From IMG/VR virus record IMGVR_UViG_3300026196_000005: a stretch of DNA of 64,000 nucleotides; one strand, written 5' to 3'. The notes beneath the pieces were generated by a model that was not told the DNA's origin, did not search any database, and saw nothing but the letters and a program-made list of their open reading frames with translations. The position numbers and the translations under genes are program-made. Each line of letters opens with the position of its first letter. The stretch's first letter is position 1. Shown here one piece after another: positions 39,886 through 61,216 of the stretch. The stretch comes from a virus.

Positions 39886-39910
39886 AACTAACAAAACAGG
39901 AGATTCAAAA

Positions 39911-40276: not shown

Positions 40277-40543
40277 ATGAATTGGCATATTACAAGAGAT
40301 GGTTTTGGTATTAGCACCGTTAAAAATAGAATGAATCCAGATGTGGCAAAAGTCATCGATACTGGACTGGAGTCAGAGATGTTAGCCAATGCCCGCCTTA
40401 TTGCGGCAGCTCCACAGATGTTGGCAGCGTTAGAAAAAGTGTCAGAAGAAATGGAAGCGGCTTCAGTGTATGCCGCAACCCCGATTATAAATATGGAATT
40501 AGCAGACATCATACAAAACGCACTTGATGCGGCAAAGATATGA
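40277..40543 (+). CDS. hypothetical protein
   Basis: 88-aa ORF with GGAAAGGAA RBS region. Confidence 0.35.
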   Translation: MNWHITRDGFGISTVKNRMNPDVAKVIDTGLESEMLANARLIAAAPQMLAALEKVSEEMEAASVYAATPIINMELADIIQNALDAAKI

Positions 40544-40718
40544 GCGCACAAATAATAAATATGATGTTTGAAGATGCTCAATTGGCAGATTTGGAACCAG
40601 TGCCAGATTTTACAAATGATTTTGTTGACGCTTATTTTCAAATGTATTCAAGAATATCAATATTTTAGGAGGTGATTGCCAAACATACAGCTTATCAGCT
40701 TTGGTTGGTAGGCTGTAG

Positions 40719-41136
40719 TTTGTAAATCATTTTAGTTAAATCAAAGGAGATTTAAAATGCAAGACCATGTATTAACTCAAGACCAAGCACGACGCTTAAA
40801 TGTACCGGAATTGGCCGGAAAAACAGTTCAGGTAACTTTGAAAACAGATACAGAAAAACATCCTGATGATGTCAATGTTCCAATTGCAAAAGATGTTTTT
40901 TATAAAGAAGAACGAATCGGAGGGGTATTGAGCTTAGATGAATAGTGATTGATAGATTTTTGCTTCATATTGCACAATTGATATGGAGCAAAGATTTGTA
41001 AATCATTTTAACAATTTTGCCGCTCGAATAAATAAACAATTACGGACTAAAAGACGGGTAGATTGGGAAAATGCCCACTAAAATCCCTGAATTGGCTAGA
41101 ATGCCACCGTAGCGGCAAATTTTGTAAATCATTTTA
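40719..41136 (+). repeat. three copies of the 15-mer TTGTAAATCATTTTA
   Basis: Copies at 40719-40733, 40996-41010 and 41122-41136. Each follows a hairpin-like sequence, and two of them lie 15-25 nt before an RBS/start. Confidence 0.8.
40757..40945 (+). CDS. hypothetical protein
   Basis: 62-aa ORF with AAGGAG RBS. Confidence 0.35.
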   Translation: MQDHVLTQDQARRLNVPELAGKTVQVTLKTDTEKHPDDVNVPIAKDVFYKEERIGGVLSLDE

Positions 41137-41156
41137 TTAAAAATAGGAGAATCAAA

Positions 41157-41369
41157 ATGAAACAACGTAAAATTACCTTTATCAGTATTACAGAATCAAT
41201 GCGGTTTTATGCTCATTATCCGATTGGCCACACAGAGCGATTGCAAATTGTTCATGAGGCTTGTATTCAAGAGCGAATAGGGCTTGATATATCAGTACGC
41301 GTGTATTCTGGCATCTCAGAAGCCAGCATTTTACGACTGGCAAAGATTCAGGAGAAATTGGCGAAATGA
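41157..41369 (+). CDS. hypothetical protein
   Basis: 70-aa ORF with AGGAG RBS. Confidence 0.35.
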   Translation: MKQRKITFISITESMRFYAHYPIGHTERLQIVHEACIQERIGLDISVRVYSGISEASILRLAKIQEKLAK

Positions 41370-41492
41370 CCGTCAATGATATTGTCACTATCACGAAAAT
41401 GGTATATGAAAAATATACCGAACTTGAAAGCAAGATTGGCAGGGAGAATGCGGCTAATGTTTCTCTTGAACTGCTGAAAGTGGAATTGAAAA

Positions 41493-41969
41493 ATGTCAAA
41501 GATAACAGTTAAAAAATTGGGAAAAATGAACGCTTGTCAAGACGCAATCCAATGGCTCAACAAACAAAGTACAAATGATTTCTATGAGCTTTTCGAGCTT
41601 GCTAAAAACGAAAATCATCTCGATTGGGCCAATTGGTACATTGCTCAAATTATGACCAAAGAGCAAAGAATGAAATATGCCATTTTCGCCGCAGAGTTGG
41701 TATTACATATTTTTACGGAAAAATATCCTGATGATAAACGGCCAGAAAATGGAATTAAAGCAATAAGAGCCTATCTTGAAAACCCAACTGCGGGAAACAA
41801 ACGCGCTGCTGCTTATGCTGCTGTTGTTAATGCTGCTGCTTATGGTGCTGCTTATGCTGCTGCTTGTGCTGCTTATGATGCTTGTGCTGCTTATGCTGCT
41901 GATGCCAAAAAAGAAACGTTGATCAAAATTATTGAACATGGCATATCTTTGGTAATGGAAAATGAGTGA
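41493..41969 (+). CDS. helical protein with Ala/Tyr-rich tandem repeat
   Basis: AAAYAAVVNAAAYGAAYAAACAAYDACAAYAADA, encoded by GCTGCTTATG-type DNA repeats at ~41806-41905. Confidence 0.45.
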   Translation: MSKITVKKLGKMNACQDAIQWLNKQSTNDFYELFELAKNENHLDWANWYIAQIMTKEQRMKYAIFAAELVLHIFTEKYPDDKRPENGIKAIRAYLENPTAGNKRAAAYAAVVNAAAYGAAYAAACAAYDACAAYAADAKKETLIKIIEHGISLVMENE

Positions 41970-42189
41970 TTACAAAATCATAATCTACAATGTCGAATTG
42001 CCAGAATTAGAATTGGCAATTGAAAAAGCAACCAACGCATACCGGGTAAAGTTTGGCAATGAGCCAAAAACATTAACAGTTGCACCCGGTATGGTTGTTG
42101 AAGCAAGTGAATTAATCGAAAGTAAAGACCTCCAACTCGCAATTGATAGGTTTTTTGCCAGTGGCGGAACAATTCAAATAGGAGAATAA
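41962..42189 (+). CDS. hypothetical protein
   Basis: 75-aa ORF overlapping the previous stop. Confidence 0.35.
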   Translation: MSDYKIIIYNVELPELELAIEKATNAYRVKFGNEPKTLTVAPGMVVEASELIESKDLQLAIDRFFASGGTIQIGE

Positions 42190-42193
42190 AACA

Positions 42194-42538
42194 ATGGGCA
42201 GTTATTATTATCATACAAATGACAAAGATTATCAGTTGGCGCATTCGCATTACAGCGACCCGGCATTCAAAAAAGAAGCCGTGATTTTTGGTAAAAAAGA
42301 AGATGGATTGCAATGGGAGTATGCCGATAGGTTGCAACAATGGGACAGAGAAAAAGCCGCTGCTTCTTTTGCCATAGCCAAAGAAAAATATGGTGAAAAA
42401 AATACGGCGCGTCGAATCGAATGTTATTTACGCCAGTATTTTGAAAATCCTTCTTTAGAGTTGATTTGTATCTTAAGTGGTACTCAGCCGTTTAATGGCT
42501 ATCCCTGGTACGCTTACGGATTCAAAGCGGGAGAATAA
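42194..42538 (+). CDS. hypothetical protein
   Basis: 114-aa ORF with AGGAG RBS. Confidence 0.4.
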   Translation: MGSYYYHTNDKDYQLAHSHYSDPAFKKEAVIFGKKEDGLQWEYADRLQQWDREKAAASFAIAKEKYGEKNTARRIECYLRQYFENPSLELICILSGTQPFNGYPWYAYGFKAGE

Positions 42539-42542
42539 AACA

Positions 42543-42755
42543 ATGCAACTTACACCGCAATTAAGCCAGTTTGACCCGCTTTGTATGCTGGCTATTCAGG
42601 TCATTGTACGCGCTAAATTGGATGCTGAAAAAGGCGACAAAAAAGCGCGGCAATGGTTTGGTAGCAAAGATTATCATTGGTATTTAGATTTTATTTCAGT
42701 GCATACCGGGTGCAACTTGCCTTATGATTTTATACCTAGTTTTGGAGGTGATTGA
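42543..42755 (+). CDS. hypothetical protein
   Basis: Start set at ATG 42543 (MQLTPQ), after a GGGAGAA RBS. Confidence 0.35.
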   Translation: MQLTPQLSQFDPLCMLAIQVIVRAKLDAEKGDKKARQWFGSKDYHWYLDFISVHTGCNLPYDFIPSFGGD

Positions 42756-42756
42756 G

Positions 42757-42966
42757 ATGTGGATTAAAGATACGTATGGAAACTTAGTCAACATATTAAA
42801 TCTTATTTCTATTATTGAGCGAGGAAATTTTGTCGAGGGAATTTCTGCATATCGGGATCGGCTCGTGCCAGTCTTGCTTTATGAGGGTGATAATTGCGAG
42901 GCCTACATGACTGAACTTGAAAAAGAATTGGCCGCATTTGGGAAGTTGATTAGGGTGGAAATTTAG
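42757..42966 (+). CDS. hypothetical protein
   Basis: Start set at ATG 42757 (MWIKD), after a GGAGGTG RBS. Confidence 0.35.
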   Translation: MWIKDTYGNLVNILNLISIIERGNFVEGISAYRDRLVPVLLYEGDNCEAYMTELEKELAAFGKLIRVEI

Positions 42967-43177
42967 TTGTGTTGGGATATGGGCTGTGCTATAATGAAGG
43001 GACAAGTAAGCAATTACACACCTTTGGCCGGGCGGTGTAACAAGCTAGATAATACAACCAAATACGTTTTTATCAGGAATACCCTGTCTGTAGTGCCTAT
43101 CTAGGCACTTATCTAGCTCGAAGCCCGGCCAAATAGCTTCTTTTTAGGTAGGCACTACAAACGGGGTATTTTTTTAT
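42967..43177 (+). promoter_or_regulatory. promoter (TTGTGT-N17-TATAAT, extended TGC) plus structured leader/small RNA with nested long-range helices and a long terminator hairpin
   Basis: TTGGCCGGGC (43024-43033) pairs with GCCCGGCCAA (43123-43132). GCTAGATAA (43044-43052) pairs with TTATCTAGC (43109-43117). The 26-nt arms 43078-43103 and 43145-43170 are followed by TTTTTTT, and the helices interdigitate. Confidence 0.45.
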
Positions 43178-43205
43178 TTACATACTATGTTTAGGAGTTT
43201 TTGCC

Positions 43206-43847
43206 TTGACCTCAAAAGACAGGCTTCCATGTAAAAGCTGTAAAACAAGCGCATGGTATAAAACTGGAAAATGCAAAGAATGCCAGCGTATTTCTCAAAG
43301 AAAATGGGATAGAAACAATCGGGAAAAATTACATGAAATAAAAAGGCAGTGGCATAAAAATAATCCTGATAAACAAAAAGAATATACTCAAAGGTGGAGG
43401 TCTAAAAATCGGGAATTAGTCAGGGAACTAAGTAGGAAATGGAAAAAAGACAATCCAGAAAAAGTAAAAATATACAAACATAATTATTATGTGCGTAATA
43501 AAGAAAAGATTTACCAATACAAAATAAAGTGGAATGAAGATAATAAAGAAAGACGTGCTAAAAAAAGAAGGCAATGGGCAAATGGCAATAGAGATATTTT
43601 AAATGCATTACGCCAAAAAAGACGCGCCAAAAAAGCAAAAAATGGCGGGAGTTATACTCCAGATGAATGGAGTAGTTTATGCAAAAAATATGACAATAAA
43701 TGTTTGTGCTGCAAAAAAAGTAAAAAACTAACTGCTGACCATATTATTCCAATATCAAAGGGCGGCAGTTCTAATATATCAAATATTCAACCATTATGTC
43801 GGAGTTGCAATTGTAGAAAAAAAGACAGGACAATTGACTACAGATGA
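43206..43847 (+). CDS. HNH endonuclease with basic repeat N-domain
   Basis: LTADHIIPISKGGSSNISNIQPLCRSCNCRKKD. The N-terminal K/R/N/E/W repeats are similar in style to 30349..30894. Confidence 0.75.
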   Translation: MTSKDRLPCKSCKTSAWYKTGKCKECQRISQRKWDRNNREKLHEIKRQWHKNNPDKQKEYTQRWRSKNRELVRELSRKWKKDNPEKVKIYKHNYYVRNKEKIYQYKIKWNEDNKERRAKKRRQWANGNRDILNALRQKRRAKKAKNGGSYTPDEWSSLCKKYDNKCLCCKKSKKLTADHIIPISKGGSSNISNIQPLCRSCNCRKKDRTIDYR

Positions 43848-44743
43848 ACAATATAGACATTGCAAAACATTGGTATAGCTTAGGTGTGGCAACGATCCCC
43901 TTACAATACAGAGGAAAACGACCAAATTTTCAAGCGTTTAAAAATACAAATGATTTAGATGAACATGGACGTGTTAGTTGGAAAAAGTACCAAGATCAAT
44001 TACCTGCTGAAGAAAAATTAAAGATATGGTTCCAGTCAAAATTCACAAATTTAGCAGTTATCACGAATTACAACGGATTAACAATATGTGATTTTGATAA
44101 TCTAGATATTTGGAGTTTGTGGAAAAGTTGGATTACTGCTAAATATCCAGATATGCTAAAAAAAACCTATTTAGTACAAACTCGCAGAGGTTTTCATGCT
44201 TATTTTTTTATTAAAAATCCACCTGAACGAACCCTAAAAATAGGCAATATTGATATAAAGTCAGCCGGAGGATATTGCGCCGCTCCTATTTCGATTCATC
44301 CAACAGGGCATGTATACACGTCCTTAGGCAAGCCATCTGACATTATGACAGTTGAGTCTTTAGAATGCGTTTTACCAAAAAGTCTACTTGAAAAAGCATC
44401 AAAAGAGGTTGAGATACCCTGTATCAATGGCAATGGTCACAGGGAATTAGACCCCTGGCAAGTCACTCCCACAATACAGGGTGAAGACCCAATCAAATGG
44501 ATAAAACAAAATCGCTCAATTACTGAATTTTTCCCGCATGCACAGCCAAGCGGCGGGAATCGCTGGTTTAAGGTTTTATGTCCGTTTCATCAGGATAATT
44601 CAGAGAGCGGTTGGCTTGACGTGCAGCGTAATCGGTTCGGTTGTCAGGCTGGATGCGTGGGAAGCGGAATTGATATTATTGATTTTTACGCACTATTAAA
44701 AAATGTGGACAGAAGTGCAGCAGTTAGGGAGTTAGCCAGATAA
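43844..44743 (+). CDS. bifunctional primase-polymerase (prim-pol) with CHC2-like zinc finger
   Basis: WYSLGVATIPLQYRGKRPN...NLAVIT...ICDFD (prim-pol N-domain-like); C-terminal CPFHQDNSESG...CQAGC. Confidence 0.75.
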   Translation: MNNIDIAKHWYSLGVATIPLQYRGKRPNFQAFKNTNDLDEHGRVSWKKYQDQLPAEEKLKIWFQSKFTNLAVITNYNGLTICDFDNLDIWSLWKSWITAKYPDMLKKTYLVQTRRGFHAYFFIKNPPERTLKIGNIDIKSAGGYCAAPISIHPTGHVYTSLGKPSDIMTVESLECVLPKSLLEKASKEVEIPCINGNGHRELDPWQVTPTIQGEDPIKWIKQNRSITEFFPHAQPSGGNRWFKVLCPFHQDNSESGWLDVQRNRFGCQAGCVGSGIDIIDFYALLKNVDRSAAVRELAR

Positions 44744-48136: not shown

Positions 48137-48700
48137 ATGAAACCAAGTGATTTTGATACACCAAAACATGCTGATTTTGTAGCTAATTACTTTAAGCTCA
48201 ATATGAATGGGACACGGGCTTATAAGGCTACTTATGATGAAAGTATGGGGGATAATTCAGCAGCGGCAAGTGCATCCGCTCTTCTAAGAAATCCTAAGAT
48301 TGCGGCTGCAATCAAATCGACACTTAAGGCTAGAATCTTAAGCACAGAAGAAATACTTGCTAGACTTGCTGAAATGGGACAATCTGCCCATGCTGATTAT
48401 GTAAAAGAAGATGGGACGGTTGACATTAAAAAAATGGTAAATGATGGCAATGCTCATTTGATTAAAGGCATTAAAGAAACGAAGTATGGGCGAGTGTATG
48501 AATTTCATGATGCTAAATCAGCACTTGAATTGCACGGCAAATATTACGCCATGTGGAAGGATAAATTTGAGATTCAACAATCCCCGCTTGAAAGTGAAGT
48601 TTTGCAGTTTCTTAAGAATGGCGACATAACGGCCGAACAGGTGTTGAAAACTTTAGGCGACAATGACAGGACGCGCCAATTGATTGCTAGTATAAAATGA
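48137..48700 (+). CDS. terS: terminase small subunit
   Basis: FVANYFKLNMNGTRAYKATY...AAASASALLRNPKIAAAI is a Terminase_2-like N-terminus; directly upstream of and overlapping TerL. Confidence 0.75.
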   Translation: MKPSDFDTPKHADFVANYFKLNMNGTRAYKATYDESMGDNSAAASASALLRNPKIAAAIKSTLKARILSTEEILARLAEMGQSAHADYVKEDGTVDIKKMVNDGNAHLIKGIKETKYGRVYEFHDAKSALELHGKYYAMWKDKFEIQQSPLESEVLQFLKNGDITAEQVLKTLGDNDRTRQLIASIK

Positions 48701-50208
48701 TTGCTTTAGAAGATTTGTTGTCCCCAGAAGCTAAAGAAGAATTGCAACTTAGGCAACTGCGCGAAATAGTGCGGCAAAACAAACATGCCGAATTGTTAGA
48801 CCCTGTATTGTGGATAGAAAAGAATTTCTACATCCCAGAACTGAAAGGGCCAATTGAGTTCCAGCCTTATCAAAAAGCAGTCTTACGCGAATCCCAACGA
48901 AAAGACAAAGATGGTAAATTTATCTATAGCATTGTGGTTTGGTCTGACATTAAGAAGTCGGCAAAGTCTACAATAGCAGCGGCAATGGCTTTATACATCG
49001 CACATCTGCGCGAGTGGGCAAGCATTAAAATAATCGCTAATGACCTAAAGCAAGCTGATAGTCGGGTAGCTTATTATTTGCGCCGTGCTATCGAACTTAA
49101 TCCCCGCATGGTAGACACCGTAAAGCAGGTACGATACAAAACCACAATACAGGGTAACAACTCAGTAGTTGAGGCCATTCCTGTTGACCCTGGCGGGGAA
49201 GCTGGCGGCAATGATGACTTGCTCGTGTTCTCTGAGATGTGGGCAGCAAAGCATAAAGCGATGGAACAGTTCTGGACAGAAATGACACTTTCACCAACGA
49301 AGTTTGGCTACTCGCAAAGGTGGATTGAAACTTACGCCGGGAATCAGGGCGAGGCTAGAATATTGGAGCAACTCTACATACAGGGTGTAAAAGAGGGCAA
49401 GCCATTAGATTTAAGCTATACCGACAAACAAGGCAAGTATCATGACTTAAGCGATTTAGAAGTTTATGCTAATGGGCCGTTACTTTGCTTGTGGAATACT
49501 AGGCCACGATGCCCCTGGCAAACGTCCGAATATTATGCCAGTGAAGCGGCGGTATTGACACCTAACGAATTTAACCGCGTGCATCGCAATCAGTGGACAA
49601 GCTCAACAGACACATTCGTCCCTCCCGAATGGTGGCATAGTTGCCAAGCCGATTTGCCAACCTTGGACAAGAGTCAAACAATTGTACTGGCCTTAGATGC
49701 TGGTGTAAGCAATGACTCATTTGCCATGTGTGGCGTAAGGAAATGGGGAACGGATGGTGTTGACGTGGTGTACAGCCGTCGATGGTTGCCCCCTAAAGGC
49801 GGTAAAATCAGTTTTACGAATCCAGACAACCCAAACGACAGGGATACGCCTGAGGGAGAGATTAGGCACCTCTGCGAGGCGTATAACGTTGTTATGGTAG
49901 CTTATGACCCTTACCAGCTTGAGGACATGGCTAACAGGCTAGGGCGAGAGGGTGTGGCGTGGTTTTTTGCCTTTAGCCAAGGTAGCCAACGGCTAACGGC
50001 CGATTCTGGTTTACGAATACTTATTCGTGAAAAACGTTTGAGGCATGATGGTAACCCGGTATTGACTGAACACGTCTTAAATGCAGGTGCAAAAATCGAC
50101 AGTGAAGATAGCAAAATCCGCATTGTAAAACGCGCTGCTCATTTGAAAGTCGATCTTTGTGTGGCTTTGTCAATGGCTTCAAATGAAGTACTTCGACTCA
50201 ATTTATGA
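48697..50208 (+). CDS. terL: terminase large subunit
   Basis: 503 aa. Deviant Walker A region SDIKKSAKST, Walker B-like DDLLVFSEMW, C-terminal nuclease-like VMVAYDPYQ. Position after TerS. Confidence 0.85.
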   Translation: MIALEDLLSPEAKEELQLRQLREIVRQNKHAELLDPVLWIEKNFYIPELKGPIEFQPYQKAVLRESQRKDKDGKFIYSIVVWSDIKKSAKSTIAAAMALYIAHLREWASIKIIANDLKQADSRVAYYLRRAIELNPRMVDTVKQVRYKTTIQGNNSVVEAIPVDPGGEAGGNDDLLVFSEMWAAKHKAMEQFWTEMTLSPTKFGYSQRWIETYAGNQGEARILEQLYIQGVKEGKPLDLSYTDKQGKYHDLSDLEVYANGPLLCLWNTRPRCPWQTSEYYASEAAVLTPNEFNRVHRNQWTSSTDTFVPPEWWHSCQADLPTLDKSQTIVLALDAGVSNDSFAMCGVRKWGTDGVDVVYSRRWLPPKGGKISFTNPDNPNDRDTPEGEIRHLCEAYNVVMVAYDPYQLEDMANRLGREGVAWFFAFSQGSQRLTADSGLRILIREKRLRHDGNPVLTEHVLNAGAKIDSEDSKIRIVKRAAHLKVDLCVALSMASNEVLRLNL

Positions 50209-51694: not shown

Positions 51695-51894
51695 TGCCTC
51701 CACAAACAATGAGCGAAAAAAACAAAATCGGAATGCAACGAAAAACAGCCGCTTATGACCTGCTCAAAGAATTGGCGCAAAAGTGCGGCATTATGCAACA
51801 TGGCCGGGATGGTCATGGGTATGATGAAATGATCGGAATGTTGGAAAGTGGGGATTTTGAATTAGAATTTGTGAGTAAAAATGACCCGCATTAA
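51694..51894 (+). CDS. hypothetical protein
   Basis: 66-aa ORF coupled to its neighbours. Confidence 0.35.
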   Translation: MPPQTMSEKNKIGMQRKTAAYDLLKELAQKCGIMQHGRDGHGYDEMIGMLESGDFELEFVSKNDPH

Positions 51895-52231
51895 CTGCAT
51901 TGAACCAAGCCGCTTAACATCCAAGCATTTACTTGCCGAATACCGCGAGATGTTACGTCTGCGCCATGCGCGGCCACGTCAGACGGGTGTAAGTAGCTAT
52001 AGGCTAGGTAAAGGTCATGTTTTGTTCTTTTACGATAAGGGCAGCTACCTACTGCAACGGCATGGGCAACTGCGTGATGAAATGAAACGGCGCGGCATGT
52101 CGCCAAACTTTGAGCTTGACCTTTCCTCATGGCCGCAATGGGCAATGGGAGATTGGATACCCGGTATTGATGCTCAGTTGCAAAACGTGGCAAGAATTAT
52201 TAATAGATTAGCTAATGGGCAGGAGAAATGA
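51881..52231 (+). CDS. denV: pyrimidine-dimer DNA glycosylase (T4 endonuclease V-like)
   Basis: The N-terminus MTRINCIEPSRLTSKHLLAEYREMLRL closely parallels T4 DenV [27 protein letters not shown]; also GHVLFFYDKGSYL. Confidence 0.85.
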   Translation: MTRINCIEPSRLTSKHLLAEYREMLRLRHARPRQTGVSSYRLGKGHVLFFYDKGSYLLQRHGQLRDEMKRRGMSPNFELDLSSWPQWAMGDWIPGIDAQLQNVARIINRLANGQEK

Positions 52232-52605
52232 AAATGTTAGAAAAATTTGAAGATTTGAAAGGGGAAGTTTTAGCAAGTGTTAAGAATAAAGAGAATGGGG
52301 AATTGGTTTTTACGCTTGTTAATGGTGATATTTATAAATTGTATCATGAGCAAGATTGCTGTGAATATGTCTATATTGAAGATATTATCGGAGATTTAGA
52401 CGATTTGGTAAATAGTCCTATTCTAATGGCAGAAGAAATTAGTAATGCAGATGAGCCAGAAAATGCAGAAATTCAATATCGTGATTATAGTGAAACTTGG
52501 ACTTTTTACAAGTTGGCAACTGTAAAAGGGTATGTAACTATCCGTTGGTATGGCAGTTCAAATGGTTATTACTCTGAAAGTGTTGATTGGCGTAAAGTTA
52601 ATTAG
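52228..52605 (+). CDS. hypothetical protein
   Basis: 125-aa ORF, followed by a clear terminator. Confidence 0.4.
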   Translation: MKMLEKFEDLKGEVLASVKNKENGELVFTLVNGDIYKLYHEQDCCEYVYIEDIIGDLDDLVNSPILMAEEISNADEPENAEIQYRDYSETWTFYKLATVKGYVTIRWYGSSNGYYSESVDWRKVN

Positions 52606-52640: not shown

Positions 52641-52731
52641 TGTTTTACTGTGTTGTTTGTTATAATAATAGAAATTGCTAGTCGCGACGCGGTAACGTCC
52701 ACTAGCCCTCCGATTGAAAAGGAATCGAAGC

Positions 52732-53910
52732 ATGATAAATCATATCACGATTTTAAAAGCCTACAAGACAAAACTTAGACCAACCGCAAAGCAGCGGCGT
52801 TATTTTGGCGGCTGTTGTGGAGCTGCTCGGTATGTTTTTAATTGGGCGTTGGCCGATAGGATCGCCACTTATGAAGCTGGCGGTAAACCAAACAAGTTTG
52901 AGCAAAAGAGGCGTTTTAATGCTACCAAAGATGAGATTTGTCCATGGATTCGTGAATACCCATATTGCATAATGCAAGAAGAGTTTGACCATGTGGACAT
53001 TGCTTATCAAAACTTTTTCCGTCGCATTAAACAGGGTAAAGGCGGCAAAGAAACAGGATTTCCGAAATTCAAAAGCAGATACAAAGACAAGCAATCATTT
53101 GTTTTACGTGGTTCTATTCGTGTTGAAAATGGGCGTGTTAAGTTACCCCGTATTGGTTGGGTAAATTTAGCTGAATCTAATTATATTCCAGAGGATGTAA
53201 AAATAAACTTTGTGACACTTTCGGAAAGTGCCGGGGAATGGTTTATTAGCTTTCAAGTCGAACAAGAAACAGACGAACCCGTACCGGCAATGGGTGAACC
53301 GCTAGGCGTTGACGTTGGCATTAAATCATTGGCGGTTTGCTCAGATGGGAAAGAGTTTCCTAATGACAAGGTGCTGAAAACATACGAGAAAAAGTTAGCC
53401 CGTTTACAGCGCGAATTATCACGACGTGAAAAAGGCAGTTCTAACCGGACCAAAACAAAAGCTAAGATTGCCAAGCTTCACCAAAAGATAGCTAACAAAC
53501 GGGCGCATAACCTGCACAATGTAAGCAAGTATGTAACCGAACATAAACGGCCTTCGGTGGTAGTCATTGAAGATTTGAACGTTAAGGGCATGGTTAAAAA
53601 TCACAATCTGGCTAAAGCCGTTAGTGATGCTTCAATGTCTGAATTGCACCGACAAATTGAATATAAAGCAGCATGGAATGGGATTGAGGTTTTGAAAGCG
53701 GATAGATGGTTTGCATCTTCCAAAACATGCAGCTCCTGTGGCTGTATCAATTCTGAATTGACATTAGCCATGCGGATTTATAAATGCCCTGATTGCGGGG
53801 CAGAAATGGATAGAGACCTTAATGCTGCTATGAATTTAGCGGCTTTAGCTGAACCTGTGAAGCGCGGGGAATTGCCTGTGGAGTTGGGCGGTAGTGAACG
53901 CTCACTGTGA
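52732..53910 (+). CDS. TnpB-like / miniature type V (Cas12-like) RuvC nuclease
   Basis: 392 aa from ATG 52732 (the track starts at TTG 52714). N-terminal KAYKTKLRPTAKQRRYFGGCCGAARYVFNWAL is typical of the OrfB/TnpB family. RuvC-I LGVDVGIKSLAV, RuvC-II VVVIEDLNVKGM, zinc finger CSSCGC...CPDCG, RuvC-III DRDLNAAMNL. No TnpA nearby. Confidence 0.85.
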   Translation: MINHITILKAYKTKLRPTAKQRRYFGGCCGAARYVFNWALADRIATYEAGGKPNKFEQKRRFNATKDEICPWIREYPYCIMQEEFDHVDIAYQNFFRRIKQGKGGKETGFPKFKSRYKDKQSFVLRGSIRVENGRVKLPRIGWVNLAESNYIPEDVKINFVTLSESAGEWFISFQVEQETDEPVPAMGEPLGVDVGIKSLAVCSDGKEFPNDKVLKTYEKKLARLQRELSRREKGSSNRTKTKAKIAKLHQKIANKRAHNLHNVSKYVTEHKRPSVVVIEDLNVKGMVKNHNLAKAVSDASMSELHRQIEYKAAWNGIEVLKADRWFASSKTCSSCGCINSELTLAMRIYKCPDCGAEMDRDLNAAMNLAALAEPVKRGELPVELGGSERSL

Positions 53911-54011: not shown

Positions 54012-54225
54012 GTTTATCCTACAGGCGCGTGGGTGGTTTGAAAAGTTGTCACATTTTCCATTTCTCACTCCTCGTTTATCCTACAGGCGCGTGGGTGGTT
54101 TGGAATCATCATGAGCTATTGTAGCACGAAATCACGTTTATCCTACAGGCGCGTGGGTGGTTTGCTACTTCACAAGCGGCTAACTTTCAACGCCAAGTTT
54201 ATCCTACAGGCGCGTGGGTAGTTTG
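54012..54225 (+). CRISPR. mini CRISPR array: 4 x 29-bp repeat GTTTATCCTACAGGCGCGTGGGTGGTTTG, 3 spacers (33, 33, 32 bp)
   Basis: Repeats at 54012-54040, 54074-54102, 54136-54164 and 54197-54225 (last repeat has G>A at 54220). Spacers are unique. The repeat can form CCUAC-AGGCGC-GUGGG. Starts 101 nt after the TnpB-like stop. Confidence 0.85.
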
Positions 54226-54351: not shown

Positions 54352-56871
54352 TTGCGCTTACTGGTAAAGTTTATGACCAAAAATGGTACGCAAGAAAAAG
54401 CACTCATAGATGATCGGATATTGGATCGTACGGTTCAAAAGATACCAGACCAACAAACAATACCGGGTAGTGATGTTTTTGTTATCAATGTTTCGTCATT
54501 TGCTGATGACTTGCCAGCCTGGGGACGCAATGTCAGATTACGTGATAGGAAGCTGCGGGGGTTTTGGCCTACTGAACCGATTATAGCAAGTGCCATTCAA
54601 ACGATTGTGGCAGCGCGTGCCAATATGTCATGGTCGCTTGACGGGCCTCCTCGCACGGTTGGCATTTTGCAGCGTATGCTACAGTCATCCAACTTGGGCA
54701 AAGGCTGGCTTGACCTAAGAATTAAAGTACTTACTGACCAACTAACACAAGACAATGGCGCATTTGTAGAAGTCATTCGGCAAGAAGACGCGCCAAATAG
54801 CCCGGTATTGAATCTAGCGCATTTGGACGCAGGTAGATGCGTAAGAACTGGCATCCCCGAAACCCCTGTCATTTACTGGGATCGTGATGGCATAGAGCAT
54901 AAATTAGCATGGTATCAGGTATTGACTTTTGAGGATATGCCGTCGCCAATTGAGGAAATGAATAGTTTGCAGGTTTGCTTCTTAAGTCGCGTCTTAAGAG
55001 CAGCCCAAATTATAAAAGACTTTGGAATCTATAAACGGGAAAAAATAGCAGGGCGTAATCCTGGCGAGATACATTTTGTTTCAGGTGTTCAGACTAAACT
55101 AATCAACGACAAATTAGCCGATGACCAAATGAGTGCCGACAATCAAGGCTATAGCCGTTTCATGTTGCCAACGATTATTGGTAGTCTTGACCCTAATTCG
55201 ACTGTTAGCACGGCTTCAATCGACTTGCGTAGTGTTCCTGATGGATTCGACGAGGATACTACATTGCGCTGGTACATTGCCCAAATTGCAATGGCCGCTG
55301 GTGCTGATTATCAGGATTTTGCGCCATTATCATCTGGCAGCTTGGGCAGCGGTCAACAAAGTGACGTGCTAGACCGTAAGTCACGCGGCAAAGGGCGCGA
55401 AACTGATGTCAAGCTATGGGAACATAAACTAAATTTTAATGGCATCATGCCGCAATCGGTGACATTTGCTTTTGATGAAAAAGACATTGAGTCAGATATT
55501 CAAGCTGCTGAATTAGAAGATAAACAGGCAAAAACATTTTCAACTTATTATGATAAGGGTCAAGGCATTTTGTCGTTGCCAGTTATCCATCAAATGATGG
55601 CAGACCAAGGCATCTTAAAGCCTGAGTACATGGCACTTTTGAATACTACAGATGTGACACCCGATATTGTGGCAACGGATGATGAGCAAGCCGCAACTGA
55701 ATCAGAACTAAATGAGGCAAACAATACGCCGTCAACCGATACGGCAGAAATGCAACCGGAACAGATACCAGCGGAAATTAGAGCGAAGGAAAATGAAGAA
55801 TATGGATGCTTAATGTTAATGATGCCTGATCATATTAGACATGCCGCTTCGTTAATTGCTGCTAATTTAGATAGTGATGATTTGTTTCAGCCACCAGAAT
55901 CATGGTCAAGTTCACCAATTGTGACAGATTCCCATGTAACAGTTAAGTATGGATTTTTGGATAGTGTGACACCAAAGCAAATTACTTCACAGATTCAAAA
56001 ACTATTGCCACTTACTATAAAAATTGGCAATTTGGCATTATTCCAGAATGATGATTTTGATGTATTGAAGTTGAATGTTGACGGGGCAGAATTACGGCAA
56101 ATGAATGCAATTGTTAGTCAGTTGCCAAACGAGGATACACATCCAACCTACAATCCACATATGACTATTGCATATCTTAAACCCGGTATGGGTAAGAAAT
56201 ACCTAAAACTTGACAATCCTCTTAATGGTATGCGCGTATCTGGCGAGTTGGTTTATTCTGACAAGGGGGAGAGCCACACCACCATACAGGGTTCCATAAA
56301 AAAAAAGACAACCAAACAAATTGATACAGCGGATTATGAATCAGAATTAGCTGACTTAATGGCGGAAGCTGCCAATGGTACAATTACAGAAGATGAGTTC
56401 AGAATTGAAGCTGAATCATTGGTTGCTGCTGAAATTATTAATACGTATCTTTTGGCAAGCGGCAAAACCATAGCGCAATTGACAGATGAGGATCGGCAAA
56501 TCATATCAGACCAAACAGAAGTGAACCTTGACGCTATACCGGGTTTATATTTATCGGCTGTTGCTTTTGGTGGTGATGAGGATACGCCTACTGATGAACT
56601 GATTGATAATCGTGTAACGCTTTGGGGAGTTGGTTTACTGGCTGTTTACGCGCTTGGGTTTTTACGTGGTGGAGATGATGAAGATCATATTGGTTGGGCT
56701 TTAGGGCCAACCGATCATTGTAACTCTTGCCTAGATAATAGCCAGCGTGTTCTCACCCGTAGTCAATGGCGAGCTTTAGGAACATATCCAAAAAGTCACG
56801 AATTAGATTGCGGCGGCTGGCTGTGCCAATGTAGTTGGGTAGAAACTGATGAACCGCTCACAGGTGTTTAA
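54352..56871 (+). CDS. portal protein fused to a 2H-phosphoesterase (LigT/Acb1-like) domain and an SPP1 gp7/Mu F-like minor head domain
   Basis: 839 aa in the position after the terminase (start may be ATG 54373). Two HxTx motifs, HVTV (aa 528; nt 55933) and HMTI (aa 603; nt 56158). The C-terminal HCNSC...ELDCGGWLCQCSW resembles the gp7-family end motif. Confidence 0.65.
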   Translation: MRLLVKFMTKNGTQEKALIDDRILDRTVQKIPDQQTIPGSDVFVINVSSFADDLPAWGRNVRLRDRKLRGFWPTEPIIASAIQTIVAARANMSWSLDGPPRTVGILQRMLQSSNLGKGWLDLRIKVLTDQLTQDNGAFVEVIRQEDAPNSPVLNLAHLDAGRCVRTGIPETPVIYWDRDGIEHKLAWYQVLTFEDMPSPIEEMNSLQVCFLSRVLRAAQIIKDFGIYKREKIAGRNPGEIHFVSGVQTKLINDKLADDQMSADNQGYSRFMLPTIIGSLDPNSTVSTASIDLRSVPDGFDEDTTLRWYIAQIAMAAGADYQDFAPLSSGSLGSGQQSDVLDRKSRGKGRETDVKLWEHKLNFNGIMPQSVTFAFDEKDIESDIQAAELEDKQAKTFSTYYDKGQGILSLPVIHQMMADQGILKPEYMALLNTTDVTPDIVATDDEQAATESELNEANNTPSTDTAEMQPEQIPAEIRAKENEEYGCLMLMMPDHIRHAASLIAANLDSDDLFQPPESWSSSPIVTDSHVTVKYGFLDSVTPKQITSQIQKLLPLTIKIGNLALFQNDDFDVLKLNVDGAELRQMNAIVSQLPNEDTHPTYNPHMTIAYLKPGMGKKYLKLDNPLNGMRVSGELVYSDKGESHTTIQGSIKKKTTKQIDTADYESELADLMAEAANGTITEDEFRIEAESLVAAEIINTYLLASGKTIAQLTDEDRQIISDQTEVNLDAIPGLYLSAVAFGGDEDTPTDELIDNRVTLWGVGLLAVYALGFLRGGDDEDHIGWALGPTDHCNSCLDNSQRVLTRSQWRALGTYPKSHELDCGGWLCQCSWVETDEPLTGV

Positions 56872-57356
56872 TGGCACAAATAATCCTACGCTCAATTACA
56901 CCAAAAGGTAAAATATTCGACCTAGATAAATTTGATAGGGAGTCTGCCAAAACCCTAAACGATATTATCAAAAAAGCAGAGCGTGAATTTGGCAAAACAG
57001 TAGCCACTTGGAAACGAAAGCCAGACTTTAAGGTTGACAGGGCAACGTCAAGTAAATTGGTAGCTGTCGTTTCGACGATGGATGAGATTTATGGCTATGT
57101 TGTGAGAGGTACTAAGCCGCATGTTATTACGCCTAAACGCGCTCCTGCTTTACGTTTTCAAACTGGCTTTACTTCTAAAACGACACCGCGTAAAATTGGA
57201 TCGAGGCGTGGAGGAAGTTCGGGCAGAATGGTAAGTGCAAAAATAGTACATCATCCCGGTACAACGGCGCGTGAATTTGACATTGTAATAGCAGAGCAAT
57301 TACAACCTGAATTAGTAAAAGAAGTTCGCAAAGCAATCAAAAAGGCATCCTCATAA
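56871..57356 (+). CDS. hypothetical basic protein in the head module
   Basis: 161-aa ORF; start overlaps the portal stop (TAATG). Confidence 0.35.
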   Translation: MAQIILRSITPKGKIFDLDKFDRESAKTLNDIIKKAEREFGKTVATWKRKPDFKVDRATSSKLVAVVSTMDEIYGYVVRGTKPHVITPKRAPALRFQTGFTSKTTPRKIGSRRGGSSGRMVSAKIVHHPGTTAREFDIVIAEQLQPELVKEVRKAIKKASS

Positions 57357-58067: not shown

Positions 58068-59732
58068 ATGCCATATTCAGGAATACCGGCAGGTTCAGCC
58101 GCAGAGGCCAAAATAGATAGATGCGTAGAGCGCGTTATGGCAGGTGGTGAAACAGACAAAAGCGCAGCTATCGCTATATGCCGTTCTTCAATTGGAAAAG
58201 CTATGGATACTGAAAACGAAAAGCAAACAGAAGATTCTGCTAATTTTGTTCAAGTTGGAAAACAAACAGCAAAGGTTGAATCTGTGACAACAACAAATGC
58301 TGGAATGGCGTATGTTGACGCTTCAAAAATGGAACATGGCATAGGTGAAAGCATGGACTATTACGATCCTGTCATGGGCGCAATGTCTTTTTCTGAATTA
58401 GACACTATTGAACAGGCGCAAGAACAACATGGCAAGCTGCGCCGAATTGTTGACAACTTCATGCGACTGGCGCGTAACATTACTCAGAATCCAGCCATTG
58501 ACCCGACAGACCGCTCGGCGGCATTGCGAAATTTAACAGAAGAGATGCGTATGCGCCTTGATGCTGATTTTGAACGTGGGGAGCGTACCATCAGCATTCC
58601 AACGATTAACGGGAAATTAGACCCGGTATATTTGCAGAAATTGCAAGACTCAAAAGAAACGGCAGACGTTTCCCGCAATGAGTCTGTTTTTGATTCACCT
58701 CACAATACCGGGTTCAAAGTATTAAAAGCTGTTGACGGCTCATTTCGTTGGCTAGGTTGGGTATCAAATAAGTTTATGGATCGGGAAGGGGAGATTCTTA
58801 CCGATGAAGCGCACAAAGATTATATCGCATGGCTTGACGCACATCCTAAAGCCGCGCCGCAACTATGGACTTATCATACACCAGGGACGCAGAGGGAAAG
58901 CAAAGCAGACTTCTGGGCATATCTAAATGGCTTCTTAATTCTTGGGGGGAAACTGACAGAACAAGAGGCAAAGGTATTTGATAACGTAAGCGATGATTTG
59001 GGGATGTCGCATGGTTTTTACGTTTTGGGCAAGCAACAAAATTTGATTAATAAGTACAGAACTTTTGAGGCTACGGTTTTACCTCGCAGGGCAGCGGCTA
59101 ATCCGTGGACTGAATTTAATGTTAAGGAGCTAGGAAATATGGCACTCACAAATGACCAGCGTCAAATGCTGGCACAATTGCATGGCGAGGATTTTGCCAA
59201 TGCGCTGGAAGATGGAACCAAGCAACGCGCAGAAGTTCTCGAAAGTGCAGGAATTCAAAGTAAGCAAAAAGAAGATGGCGCAATTGGTGGTGGTAAAGCT
59301 GATGGTTCGATTGCTGGCAGTAAGGAAATTCCCGCCGATGCTGTTTTGGTAGAGGAAATTCAGGCTACTGAATCAGAAGTTGAAGCTGTTCTTAATACCG
59401 CAGATTTAGCAAAAAGCGTAGCCGATTTGGTAACAAAGCAGCTTAATCCCGCTGGACTGCATGAGGCAATTAAAACGCTTAATGAGTCTAATTCTGCCAA
59501 TGCAACGGCAATTGAAAATGTGGTTAAGCGGTTGGAAGCCTTAGAACTTTCTGACGATCAAAAGATGGCTAATGAACTTGCACCAAAAGTACCCGGTATT
59601 GACTGGATGGGTGGTTTTCGGGCAAGTGCTGAAAAAGCAACCGTTGTAACTGAAAAAGAAAAAGAAACATTTAAGAATTCTAAACCAGATGAAAGCTGGG
59701 CAAGTAACCTATTTAATTTGGGTGGAGGATAA
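58068..59732 (+). CDS. prohead protease / scaffolding fusion (putative)
   Basis: Position between portal and capsid. FRWLGWVSNKFMDREGEILTDEAH resembles the prohead-protease N-block. C-terminal coiled-coil, acidic scaffold-like region. Confidence 0.5.
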   Translation: MPYSGIPAGSAAEAKIDRCVERVMAGGETDKSAAIAICRSSIGKAMDTENEKQTEDSANFVQVGKQTAKVESVTTTNAGMAYVDASKMEHGIGESMDYYDPVMGAMSFSELDTIEQAQEQHGKLRRIVDNFMRLARNITQNPAIDPTDRSAALRNLTEEMRMRLDADFERGERTISIPTINGKLDPVYLQKLQDSKETADVSRNESVFDSPHNTGFKVLKAVDGSFRWLGWVSNKFMDREGEILTDEAHKDYIAWLDAHPKAAPQLWTYHTPGTQRESKADFWAYLNGFLILGGKLTEQEAKVFDNVSDDLGMSHGFYVLGKQQNLINKYRTFEATVLPRRAAANPWTEFNVKELGNMALTNDQRQMLAQLHGEDFANALEDGTKQRAEVLESAGIQSKQKEDGAIGGGKADGSIAGSKEIPADAVLVEEIQATESEVEAVLNTADLAKSVADLVTKQLNPAGLHEAIKTLNESNSANATAIENVVKRLEALELSDDQKMANELAPKVPGIDWMGGFRASAEKATVVTEKEKETFKNSKPDESWASNLFNLGGG

Positions 59733-59734: not shown

Positions 59735-61216
59735 ATGAGCAATATGATTGATGTAAATCAGTTGGCTACTGCCCTGGCTAGTATGGCAGGCGGTAATCAA
59801 CAAAAATGGGGCAGCTTTCCGCAGGGGTATAAGGCCGCTCCATCTACTCCCGGTGTGCCATTTTTGCATGGCCCTGGCGGTTTGTTTGGCGTATCTGGTT
59901 TAGAGCGTGACATTTTCTCTAGCCATATCAATGGCGATGGGATTGCTTCAATGTTGCCTGTTAGTTTGTCTGTAAAGACTAATCCTCTTTATGGCTACAT
60001 TACAGGGTTTCAAGCGTCTAATGGTTCACAGCCAGACCCAACAACCGATCCATGTGGAGCTTTTCCGGTAGCTGGTGCAATCAAAAACTGTATTCAGACG
60101 GCACAATTTGGCCGTTACGGTTTTGAGACACGCGCCATTGATTTGAATCGGCTAGGTGAAGTAATTGATCGTGGCGAGTTTATGGATTTGCGTATCGTAA
60201 ATAGCCCATTGGTAAATGATTTTGCTACTGGTTTGTTTGGCGGTTTGCCAAGTGGACAGGCTAATGTTTTGGCAATGGACTTTATGTCACGACTGATTGA
60301 AGTTGGTGTAAGTTTCCAGCGCGAATTAGGCGAACAGGTTTATGCCGGAACGGGAACGGGTAACGAATTCCCTGGCCTAGATTTGCTGGTTGGTACTAGC
60401 AAAGTTGACGCATTGACTGGCACTGATTGTCCTGCGCTTGACTCCGACATTAAGAACTTCAATTATGGTTGTGTGGATGATACCACGTTAAGCAGCGGCA
60501 TCGTTCGTACACTTCATGCGATATATCGTTATGTCCGTTATAATGCAAGGACAATGAATTTCGGGCAGGTTAGCTGGGTTTTCACAATGAACCCAAACTT
60601 GTTTACTGAATTAACCGACGTTTGGCCTTGCCAATACAATACCGACCGTTGCGAGGTCATTGGCGACAATGCGCGGGTATTTGTTGACGGTGATGCACAG
60701 CGTCGATTTAGTGATGAAATGCGTAACGGTTCATTCTTGCTAATTGACGGGCAGCGCATTCCGGTTATTCAGGATTCATTTATCGTTGAAGAATCTAGCG
60801 GCACTCCTGGCGCGAATTTGGTAGATGGTCAATTTGCAAGTGACATCTATCTTATTCCGATGACCGTACGGGGTGGCACTCCTGTGACCTTCTGGGAAGT
60901 GTTCAACTACGGCAATGATGCGCTTCAATCTGCCATTTCTGGCGGTCGCCTAAGCCAAGATTTTTGGTCTGACGCTGGCCGTTTCTTATGGCATAAAGAG
61001 CCGCCTACGCAGTCCTGTGTACAATGGAATGCTCAGATTCGTCCTCGTGTGATTTTGAGAACGCCTCAACTCGCAGGACGTTTGCAGAATGTTTGCTACG
61101 AACCTCTCCAGCATTTCCGTGACGCGGTTCCGGATGATTACTATTTTGTAAATGGTGGCATAACTACAGAGAGAGCAGCTCCAAGCTATTTCTCAGACTG
61201 GAATCTACCGGCGTAA
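59735..61216 (+). CDS. major capsid protein (HK97-fold family, putative)
   Basis: 493 aa immediately after the scaffold gene and followed by a strong terminator. The N-terminal FLHGPGGLFGVSGLERDIFSSHI...MLP block is common in actinophage-type MCPs, as I recall. Confidence 0.65.
   Translation: MSNMIDVNQLATALASMAGGNQQKWGSFPQGYKAAPSTPGVPFLHGPGGLFGVSGLERDIFSSHINGDGIASMLPVSLSVKTNPLYGYITGFQASNGSQPDPTTDPCGAFPVAGAIKNCIQTAQFGRYGFETRAIDLNRLGEVIDRGEFMDLRIVNSPLVNDFATGLFGGLPSGQANVLAMDFMSRLIEVGVSFQRELGEQVYAGTGTGNEFPGLDLLVGTSKVDALTGTDCPALDSDIKNFNYGCVDDTTLSSGIVRTLHAIYRYVRYNARTMNFGQVSWVFTMNPNLFTELTDVWPCQYNTDRCEVIGDNARVFVDGDAQRRFSDEMRNGSFLLIDGQRIPVIQDSFIVEESSGTPGANLVDGQFASDIYLIPMTVRGGTPVTFWEVFNYGNDALQSAISGGRLSQDFWSDAGRFLWHKEPPTQSCVQWNAQIRPRVILRTPQLAGRLQNVCYEPLQHFRDAVPDDYYFVNGGITTERAAPSYFSDWNLPA

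Follow-up and report, generated by a model that had tools for sequence, protein, structure and literature searches.

A 2H phosphoesterase domain embedded in the portal protein of an uncultured tailed phage

In an uncultured tailed phage, whose genome is ~65-70 kb, the portal protein contains a 2H phosphoesterase domain between its portal fold and a second, cysteine-rich module. We analyzed a window of 64,000 nucleotides, the whole stretch taken from IMG/VR record IMGVR_UViG_3300026196_000005. Within it, a single gene (54352..56871, + strand) encodes all three parts as one polypeptide of 839 amino acids; this reading frame had been proposed in the original prediction and is present in the ORF list. 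From its sequence and predicted structure, the 2H domain is complete, catalytically intact, and apparently active, and its distribution among relatives marks it as optional cargo in the portal linker of this lineage. We propose that this portal-borne phosphodiesterase would hydrolyze a host nucleotide-based defense signal or an RNA cyclic end, an explanation that we regard as evenly balanced between right and wrong. Fusions of this type, and the proposal that they act against defense, have been known since 2017 (Iyer et al. 2017, PMC5512222), and the protein described here adds an example to a known kind rather than opening a new one. Its value lies in being a well-delimited example with a clean experimental handle, rather than in a new concept.

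Three modules in one polypeptide

The length of 839 residues is counted from a TTG at 54352. The real start is probably the ATG at 54373, which would give 832 residues, because homologs begin M-x-x-N-G. The large terminase subunit is encoded at 48697..50208 (+ strand; Pfam TerL_nuclease, E 1e-15; PHROG 9, E 4e-45), which places the fusion gene in the head and packaging module, and the same terminase-portal gene order is repeated in four related loci (L001-L004). Its TerL is at most 29% identical to that of any deposited phage, and no relative of the carrier portal family was found among 50,697 deposited phage genomes. Directly 3' of the portal gene is a conserved ORF of 161 amino acids (56871..57356, + strand), with ORFs of 160-162 amino acids at the same position in L001-L004. 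It travels with the portal gene in all related loci and has no family match in Pfam, PHROG, or NCBIfam.

The N-terminal ~440 residues have a portal fold (clip, stem, wing, and crown), as seen in a full-length AF2 model compared with the PDB by Foldseek. The portal domain spans residues ~50-436 (54499..55659, + strand), and its best 50 matches are all portals, including those of phage 812, RcGTA, HK97, Mu, T4, and G20c (best E 4e-9). The 2H domain is thus embedded in frame behind a portal domain, as had been claimed for a portal-sized N-terminal region. A Pfam search of the 839-residue protein gave no portal match, and PHROG 146 matched it weakly (E 0.007). Homologs that are 35-38% identical overall, and 46-50% identical over the portal part, match PHROG portal families with E values down to 1.6e-18. 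In many relatives, too, the portal C terminus is extended by a disordered linker followed by another head-associated module, and inteins (PF14890) are present in other homologs of the portal protein.

The 2H phosphoesterase domain itself is genuine, as judged from its sequence, its predicted structure, and its conserved catalytic tetrad; the match to this superfamily far exceeds chance. We place it at residues 484-645 (55801..56286, + strand), from YGCLML to the last strand, using PF13563, standalone homologs, AF2, Foldseek, and dN/dS; these boundaries agree with the span of 55795-56300 first assigned to it. Pfam PF13563 (2_5_RNA_ligase2) gives 33.4-36.9 bits, above its gathering score of 27, with an E value of 5e-9 on the isolated domain, and PHROG 755 matches at E 5e-10. 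Thirty standalone homologs of ~180 amino acids align with the domain end to end (E 1e-14 to 5e-27). The AF2 model of the domain (pLDDT 93.4, pTM 0.87) has the bilobed alpha+beta 2H fold that the original prediction led us to expect. Its best 31 Foldseek matches in the PDB are all 2H enzymes with a probability of 1.00, led by the Burkholderia phage BCSR5 phosphodiesterase/Acb1 (E 8e-6, TM 0.58-0.60).

Both catalytic motifs, one per lobe, are where they had been reported, with their histidines 75 residues apart. The first, H528-V-T530-V (55933..55944, + strand), lies within DSHVTVKYGF, with its histidine at nucleotide 55933, and is invariant in the 30 standalone homologs and in all nine fused proteins. 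The second, H603-M-T605-I (56158..56169, + strand), lies within NPHMTIAYLKPG, with its histidine at nucleotide 56158, and is followed by the family signature AYLKPGMGKKY; it is invariant in the standalone homologs and in eight of the nine fused proteins. The exception, P0017, carries H603Y and K610L and so has lost the second catalytic histidine. In the other eight, the catalytic tetrad and the family-specific residues are kept. The dN/dS of the domain is about 0.2, similar to that of the C-terminal module, which indicates that the 2H domain is under purifying selection.

The C-terminal module (residues 658-839; 56323..56868, + strand) is helical, cysteine-rich (HCxxC...CxGWxCxC), and folded in the AF2 model. 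Its proposed resemblance to SPP1 gp7/Mu F was undetectable by every route that we took. A Pfam search of the module matched nothing, and PF04233 matched none of 21 close relatives even at E<=1. A jackhmmer search started from the module never reached the PF04233-bearing homologs, and the reverse hmmsearch, from MuF-bearing homologs against the module, gave E>1. Alignment of the module to MuF by hhalign returned a probability of 0.9% (E 0.06), pairing the C..C and C.C motifs. A MuF identity for this module is unsupported. Distant homologs of the 839-residue protein are portal fusions with PF04233 at the C terminus, and among 92 long portal homologs the Cys-rich module is found in 32 and a PF04233-type C terminus in 49. 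We describe the module as a positional analog of the MuF/gp7 of distant homologs; the two share a loose C..C...C.C motif, which does not imply membership in that family.

A presence/absence polymorphism in the portal linker

The 2H domain is flanked by two linkers. Linker 1 (residues 437-483; 55660..55800, + strand) is acidic and disordered, with pLDDT <50 over residues 439-449 and 457-480 in the full-length AF2 model, and alignment to insert-less relatives puts the 5' edge of the insertion at about residues 478-483. Linker 2 (residues 646-657; 56287..56322, + strand), also delimited from the AF2 model, has pLDDT <50 over residues 648-655 and contains the 3' edge of the insertion and a run of nine adenines (A9) at 56298-56306. 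The domain is a clean in-frame indel of ~160 codons inside a disordered linker, present in nine related metagenomic phages and missing from about 12 relatives. Some carriers and noncarriers are otherwise very similar: the flanks of P0004 (with the insert) and P0014 (without it) are 91% and 93% identical, and those of P0003 (with) and P0006 (without) are 95% identical. Many close relatives lack the 2H domain, and assembly can therefore proceed without it. Natural pairs such as these, with portal flanks >90% identical, with and without the insert, are ready-made test material.

Between P0004 and P0014, dS is 0.83 over the portal and 0.29 over the C-terminal module, a drop that points to recombination adjoining the insert. 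The DNA flanking the insert in this pair shares only 5 nt of microhomology (AAACA). We also considered an intein or a self-mobile insertion and rejected both, as the insert carries no signal of an intein or a homing endonuclease.

The A9 run deserves separate comment because it lies exactly at the junction between the 2H domain and the C-terminal module, where a homopolymer sequencing error could have joined separate genes. The original prediction itself named such a frameshift as a way in which it could be wrong. However, the same in-frame architecture occurs in eight other independent assemblies, at 52-79% identity, and the insert-less relatives, too, are in frame. The run of lysines is absent from P0010, P0017, and P0020-22, which are still in frame, the 5' junction has no homopolymer, and each of the three modules shows purifying selection in a single shared frame. 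We reject an assembly or sequencing artifact, the probability of which we consider negligible. The A9 run is kept in all five genes with DNA examined, with a stop in the -1 frame within 2-6 codons after it, and programmed -1 frameshifting at this site is a weak lead only; against it, AAA is the preferred lysine codon and the lysine run is absent from several homologs.

Relationship to Acb1, LigT, and known portal fusions

The 2H domain belongs to a large, phage-specific clade of >6,000 clusters, whose members are either standalone or embedded in polyvalent virion proteins. Long multidomain proteins make up about a third of the best 150 clade representatives, with fusion partners that include ART-PolyVal, ADP-ribosyl exotoxin, GNAT, DUF5661, and polyA polymerase domains, and the matches in BFVD include an 883-residue "putative structural protein" of Gordonia phage GMA2. 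Standalone homologs are common in phages, outside head modules, so the fusion to a head protein looks like a specific adaptation.

Acb1 (phage T4 gp57B and Erwinia phage FBB1; PDB 7t26/7t27 and 9q2g) uses an HxT/HxT tetrad to cleave CBASS signals, with base-stacking aromatics (Y12, W74, F107, and W147) and a lid (residues 145-152) over the cyclic dinucleotide (Hobbs et al. 2022, PMC9117128). The domain described here resembles Acb1 in being a phage 2H fold with the same tetrad, and Acb1 is its best match in both sequence and fold among solved structures; a profile search of PDB sequences found 9q2g at E 1e-5 and 7t26 at E 0.005. The sequence leading up to the second histidine is also similar, with a clade consensus of DYPDY.PH.T compared to YDYPDYRPHIT in Acb1. 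However, the Pfam Acb1 family (PF23474) scores only 15.3 bits on the full protein and 18.4 bits on the domain against a threshold of 27, and all nine fused proteins match it below threshold (best E 7.6e-5). Solved Acb1 structures align with the domain at TM 0.52-0.60, and predicted Acb1 proteins in BFVD at TM 0.55-0.67, compared to 0.72-0.78 within the domain's own clade. The signature AYLKPGMGKKY is particular to that clade, and Acb1 is a free protein of ~150 residues with a C-terminal lid, whereas here the chain runs on into linker 2. Conserved aromatic residues of the 2H domain (Y484, F564, Y600, and Y635) have no established equivalence to those of Acb1.

LigT/ThpR, the RNA 2',3'-cyclic phosphodiesterase, shares the superfamily and the catalytic motifs, at TM 0.50-0.57. 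We reject orthology to LigT, as TIGR02258 scores 15.6 bits against an equivalog cut-off of 65.7; no RNA repair partners were found among 10 ORFs sampled. Taken as folds, the plant or bacterial cyclic phosphodiesterases, Usb1, and LigT all match at TM 0.5-0.6, and Acb1 is structurally no nearer. By these profile and structure comparisons, the clade appears to be sister or related to anti-CBASS Acb1 yet distinct from it, and it is not LigT.

Domains of the 2H type fused to portal or MuF proteins have been described before, together with the proposal that they are packaged, injected, and degrade nucleotide signals (Iyer et al. 2017, J Bacteriol, PMC5512222; Iyer et al. 2022, Viruses, PMC9503650). 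As in those polyvalent proteins (PMC5512222), an enzymatic 2H domain is here fused to a portal in a terminase-portal head module, and its clade also occurs solo or in multidomain proteins with ART and other effectors. In contrast to them, the 2H domain is internal, between the portal and a second module, rather than terminal, and the second module is not a recognizable MuF. A further difference in our alignments is the presence/absence polymorphism between near-identical portals. Microbacterium phages of clusters EA3/EA5/EA8 and EB encode portal-MuF fusion proteins (Jacobs-Sera et al. 2020, PMC7302621). These proteins of cultured actinophages likewise combine a portal and a minor-head module in one polypeptide, but they have no enzyme insert, and the C-terminal module here has no PF04233 signal.

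Proposed function and its alternatives

How might a portal-borne phosphodiesterase act? In portals the C-terminal crown faces into the capsid. The 2H domain would be located there, and therefore up to 12 enzyme copies would be built into each virion. The substrate would most likely be a cyclic oligonucleotide or a 2'-5'/3'-5' linked defense signal, or else an RNA 2',3'-cyclic end, hydrolyzed via an HxT/HxT acid-base mechanism. The enzyme could reach its substrate by proteolytic release from the portal followed by ejection with the DNA, or it could act in the cytoplasm of the producing cell, where the portal would be made late in infection. We infer the substrate, the capsid-internal location, the cleavage, and the ejection; the idea of a phosphodiesterase that lies within the capsid, may be ejected, and acts against nucleotide signaling is plausible. 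Counting against the proposal are the sub-threshold Pfam Acb1 scores, a fold no closer to Acb1 than to other 2H families, which leaves several substrate classes in play, the loss of H603 in P0017, and the many close relatives that lack the domain. A further difficulty is that, being covalently linked to the portal, the domain would need to be cut free before it could leave the capsid. No head protease was recognized in the head module: searches of Pfam, PHROG, NCBIfam, and PDB sequences with the ORFs at 56871-57356, 58068-59732, and 59735-61216 gave no informative matches.

This difficulty lends some weight to the view that the domain is not delivered at all. It might instead be tethered under the portal crown or act only on unassembled portal monomers. 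In that case the fusion would be no more than a means of expressing a cytoplasmic phosphodiesterase late, together with the portal; alternatively, the domain might have a structural or packaging role in the head. The portal stays in the capsid, no protease is apparent to free the domain, and long flexible linkers flank it, as expected of a tethered module. However, retention of the tetrad in eight of nine proteins argues against a purely structural role, the abundance of standalone homologs outside head modules makes the head fusion look like a specific adaptation, and comparable head-fused effectors (T4 Alt and MuF fusions) have been described as packaged or injected (PMC5512222). We consider the absence of delivery somewhat unlikely.

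The remaining alternatives concern the substrate. A LigT/ThpR-like 2',3'-cyclic phosphodiesterase might open 2',3'-cyclic phosphate ends produced by anticodon nucleases of the host or by other RNases that work without metal, and so take part in tRNA or RNA repair. The domain's fold is about as close to LigT, PH0099, and the plant and Deinococcus CPDases as it is to Acb1, Pfam LigT_PEase matches weakly (E 0.04), and in Maribacter phage Molly a standalone homolog lies ~4 kb from a gene annotated "HAD domain in Swiss Army Knife RNA repair proteins." The low TIGR02258 score speaks against RNA-end healing; in addition, the 10 non-structural ORFs sampled included no RNA ligase and no polynucleotide kinase, and the window has no tRNA genes. 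According to Iyer et al. (2017, PMC5512222), neither the 2H versions in polyvalent proteins nor the solo relatives of these are ever associated with RNA ligases. A repair enzyme would gain little from a portal tether, and we regard this role as unlikely. An injected toxin has also been raised as an option, from the parallel fusions of 2H and PBECR domains to MuF and portal proteins (Iyer et al. 2017, PMC5512222). By analogy with the PBECR RNase domains, the 2H domain might be a Usb1/Mpn1-like 3'-5' exoribonuclease or other RNase that attacks the RNAs of the host at an early stage of infection. Human Usb1 is indeed among the fold matches (TM 0.57-0.60), and the same clade is fused to ADP-ribosyltransferase toxin domains, but sequence identity to Usb1 is 7% and, among proteins of solved structure, its closest relatives by sequence are Acb1-type phosphodiesterases. 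Such an effector would share the release problem of the preferred explanation, and we hold it to be quite improbable.

If the phosphodiesterase is both active and delivered, then Acb1-type anti-signaling enzymes can be pre-loaded in capsids and not just expressed after entry, and the timing argument for phage escape from CBASS-like abortive infection would change. In its boldest form, 12 portal-tethered Acb1-like phosphodiesterases per virion would be clipped in the linkers, leave with the DNA, and destroy the cyclic-oligonucleotide signals of CBASS or type III CRISPR within the first seconds of infection, before phage expression. Closely related phages would use the portal linker as an exchangeable slot for cargo, filling and emptying it by recombination. 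We offer this version tentatively and think it rather doubtful; if it is true, this phosphodiesterase would be the first enzyme shown to be delivered by virions against nucleotide signaling.

Two minor observations concern other features of this phage. No exact match to its CRISPR-like repeat was found in genome, viral, or metagenome collections. The relatives of its TnpB are at most 47% identical and taxonomically scattered, with many in filamentous cyanobacteria at ~35%.

A 2H phosphoesterase domain within a portal protein

The original prediction placed a 2H phosphoesterase domain behind a portal-sized N-terminal region in an 839-aa ORF of the window (54352..56871, + strand). Both of its HxTx motifs were located on the + strand within this ORF, DSHVTVKYGF (H528, nt 55933) and NPHMTIAYLKPG (H603, nt 56158), at the claimed spacing of 75 residues. 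The true start is probably ATG 54373, giving 832 aa, since homologues open with M-x-x-N-G and a hairpin followed by a T run ends at 54352; residue numbers here nevertheless follow the 839-aa ORF. A full-length AlphaFold2 model, based on an alignment of 88 homologues, has three folded modules (aa ~50-436, 484-645 and 658-835) with disordered linkers between them (aa 439-480 and 648-655). The portal assignment held: the best 50 Foldseek matches in the PDB are all portal proteins (best E 4e-9), including those of phage 812, RcGTA, HK97, Mu, T4, and G20c.

The second module is a genuine 2H domain. It scores 33-37 bits against PF13563 (2'-5' RNA ligase superfamily; Pfam gathering score, 27) and matches PHROG 755 (E 5e-10). 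Searching with aa 478-650 returned thirty standalone proteins of 160-200 aa (E 1e-14 to 5e-27) that align with the window domain from YGCLML through the last strand. All thirty keep H528, T530, H603, and T605, along with G534, F564, V571, P602, Y608, K610, and S636. The segment is thus a complete family member and no fragment. An AlphaFold2 model built from this alignment has pLDDT 93.4 and pTM 0.87, and its best 31 Foldseek matches in the PDB are all 2H enzymes. Burkholderia phage BCSR5 phosphodiesterase/Acb1 ranks highest (E 8e-6, TM 0.58-0.60), followed in rank order by, among others, Arabidopsis and Deinococcus cyclic phosphodiesterases, phage FBB1 Acb1, Usb1, LigT, AKAP18, and viral 2',5'-phosphodiesterases. 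Against PDB sequences, the 2H profile matched Acb1 (9q2g, E 1e-5; 7t26, E 0.005) and Pyrococcus PH0099 (E 0.045).

Which 2H family this is can be narrowed down. Orthology with LigT/ThpR is ruled out by a TIGR02258 score of 15.6 bits, far under the cut-off of 65.7, and the Pfam Acb1 model gives 15-18 bits, below its threshold of 27, whereas many standalone relatives have precomputed PF23474 matches. Among predicted viral structures, the nearest (TM 0.64-0.78) belong to a 1030-aa protein from an uncultured Caudovirales member and to Maribacter, Tenacibaculum, and Microbacterium phage proteins named "2'-5' RNA ligase superfamily", in contrast to 0.55-0.67 for Acb1-named proteins. When 1.84 billion representatives were searched with a profile, 6,425 clusters matched at E<=1e-3, 2,370 of them at E<=1e-30. 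About one third of the best 150 representatives are long multidomain proteins with the 2H domain embedded; partners include ART-PolyVal, ADP-ribosyl exotoxin, GNAT, DUF5661, and polyA-polymerase-type nucleotidyltransferase domains. From these scores, predicted structures, counts, and partners, we therefore place the domain in a large phage-centred clade that is related to Acb1 yet distinct from it and recurs in polyvalent or virion proteins. Our searches found no characterised member of this clade.

The third module (aa 658-839, HCxxC...CxGWxCxC) was originally likened to SPP1 gp7/MuF. Many of the 569 homologues are indeed portal-MuF fusions (670-730 aa, portal followed by PF04233, Phage_Mu_F), an arrangement also present in cultured Microbacterium phages (PMC7302621), and the module occupies the MuF position. 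Unlike in those fusions, PF04233 is not detectable here: neither the window protein nor 21 close relatives have a Pfam match in this module at E<=1, jackhmmer converges on 32 proteins, none with PF04233, and a MuF-type profile from 37 homologues matches 49 proteins, none of the window type. An hhalign comparison gave a probability of 0.9%, with the Cys motifs nonetheless paired. We therefore regard the module as a positional analogue of MuF, with homology unproven.

Presence and absence of the insert among relatives

In an alignment of 21 close relatives, the 2H domain is a single clean block of ~160 residues between conserved flanks, ...IPAE(V/I)R and (T)IQG...KQID. It is found in 9 proteins (816-852 aa) and missing from 12 (657-684 aa). 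Its presence does not track overall relatedness. P0004 (with insert) and P0014 (without) share 91% identity in the N-terminal part and 93% in the C-terminal part; for P0003 (with) and P0006 (without) the values are 95% and 66%. The window protein is itself more similar to P0005, which lacks the insert (89%), than it is to most proteins that have it. Identities inside the insert (49-75%) parallel those of the portal part, consistent with early acquisition and later, repeated loss or exchange. The P0004/P0014 pair has a synonymous divergence of 0.83 in the portal part and of 0.29 in the C-terminal module, suggesting that recombination had a breakpoint close to the insert.

A sequencing frameshift that artificially joined separate genes is excluded by the clean in-frame block in 9 of 21 relatives, a dN/dS of ~0.2 (equal to that of the C-terminal module, with dS close to saturation), and conservation of the tetrad. 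The catalytic tetrad and family signature are intact in eight of the nine insert-bearing proteins, the exception being P0017 (H603Y and K610L). By the same evidence, the 2H domain is an optional module under selection.

An A9 homopolymer (A AAA AAA AAG, 56298-56306) marks the exact junction of the 2H domain and C-terminal module. All five related genes compared at the DNA level have an A9 run there, even though synonymous sites are close to saturation, and the -1 frame meets a stop within 2-6 codons, at a conserved CAA ATT GA. A -1 slip, if it occurs, would yield a portal(+2H) product without the C-terminal module; this is a weak lead, because Lys is preferentially encoded by AAA and the Lys run is missing from several homologues. 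Inteins (PF14890) are present in 1000-1150-aa portal homologues (P0048, P0050, P0053, P0075, P0101, and P0118), one of them also with LAGLIDADG PF03161; in P0050 the intein follows the MuF domain. These portal genes have thus been repeatedly invaded by different insertions.

Proposed function and delivery

Behind its crown, the portal polypeptide incorporates an intact 2H catalytic module. Portal structures have their C-terminal crown turned towards the inside of the capsid, so up to twelve copies of the domain would lie inside each head. The HxT/HxT tetrad works by acid-base catalysis and cuts phosphodiester or cyclic phosphate bonds. The tetrad of Acb1 opens CBASS signals into linear molecules (PMC9117128). 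We consider hydrolysis of a nucleotide-based defence signal the most likely function, because Acb1-type enzymes are the closest relatives that have been characterised, the clade accompanies injected-effector domains, 10 sampled non-structural ORFs include no RNA ligase or kinase partner, and so patchy a distribution is typically seen for counter-defence cargo.

Delivery is the weak point of this proposal. The portal remains with the capsid, so the domain would have to be excised from its linkers to leave with the DNA, and searches of the head-module ORFs (Pfam, PHROG, NCBIfam, PDB sequences) identified no head protease; nor was a cleavage site recognised. Alternatively, with the portal made late, the domain may act in the producing cell.

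For 2H domains fused to portal or MuF, Iyer et al. 2017 (PMC5512222, section 20) proposed that they act as RNases or break down the nucleotides of defence systems that are nucleotide-activated, and Iyer et al. 2022 (PMC9503650) took such fusions to suggest head packaging and injection against oligonucleotide signalling. The functional idea in the original prediction is plausible but is thus an existing hypothesis, and the prediction as a whole is partly supported, with the 2H domain and portal confirmed and gp7/MuF identity undemonstrated. In contrast to those fusions, the 2H domain here is internal, between a portal and a non-MuF module. Our analysis adds this internal position, the exact bounds of one portal-2H case, pairs of near-identical phages with and without the insert, and a 2H clade set apart from Acb1 and LigT.

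Phage lineage and a TnpB-associated mini-array

The phage belongs to an uncultured lineage. No portal relative is detectable among deposited phage genomes, and its large terminase (48697-50208, upstream of the portal gene) shares no more than 29% identity with any deposited phage. Four related contigs keep the gene order TerS, TerL, small ORFs, portal gene, 161-aa ORF, ~550-aa ORF, ~490-aa ORF. The two large head-module ORFs (58068-59732, 554 aa; 59735-61216, 493 aa) have no significant Pfam, PHROG, or PDB-sequence match, the sole hint being NCBIfam capsid_maj_Podo (E 0.02); the 493-aa product is probably the major capsid protein. As judged from these searches, the head proteins are very divergent. 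Between terminase and portal, 51881-52231 encodes a pyrimidine dimer glycosylase resembling T4 endonuclease V (Pfam Pyr_excise, E 2e-14; PHROG 1183) and 52228-52605 a DUF7448 protein; in the related locus L004, a gene with a weak Pyr_excise match likewise lies upstream of the portal gene. Non-structural genes at 26593-44743 include those for a PD-(D/E)XK nuclease, DnaJ-domain protein, N6/N4 DNA methylase, M23 peptidase, FtsK/SpoIIIE-type ATPase, and a Prim-Pol that carries a DnaG zinc ribbon. No tRNA genes are present in the window.

A TnpB-like gene (52714-53910, +; 398 aa; Pfam OrfB_IS605, Cas12f1-like TNB, HTH) is followed 100 nt downstream, in the same orientation, by a CRISPR-like mini-array (54012-54225, +) of four copies of the 29-nt repeat GTTTATCCTACAGGCGCGTGGGTGGTTTG, the last with 1 mismatch, and unique spacers of 32-33 nt. 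No cas genes were seen nearby, there is no Rfam match or obvious anti-repeat, and the repeat core has no exact match in genome, viral, or metagenome collections. The related phages L001-L004 lack the TnpB-plus-array block at this position. In the loci of the two closest TnpB homologues (L005, 47% identity; L006, 41%), short direct repeats spaced at a period of 60-63 nt also lie 200-300 nt beyond the TnpB gene on its downstream side. TnpB and array together may form a phage-borne miniature TnpB/type V-like RNA-guided system.
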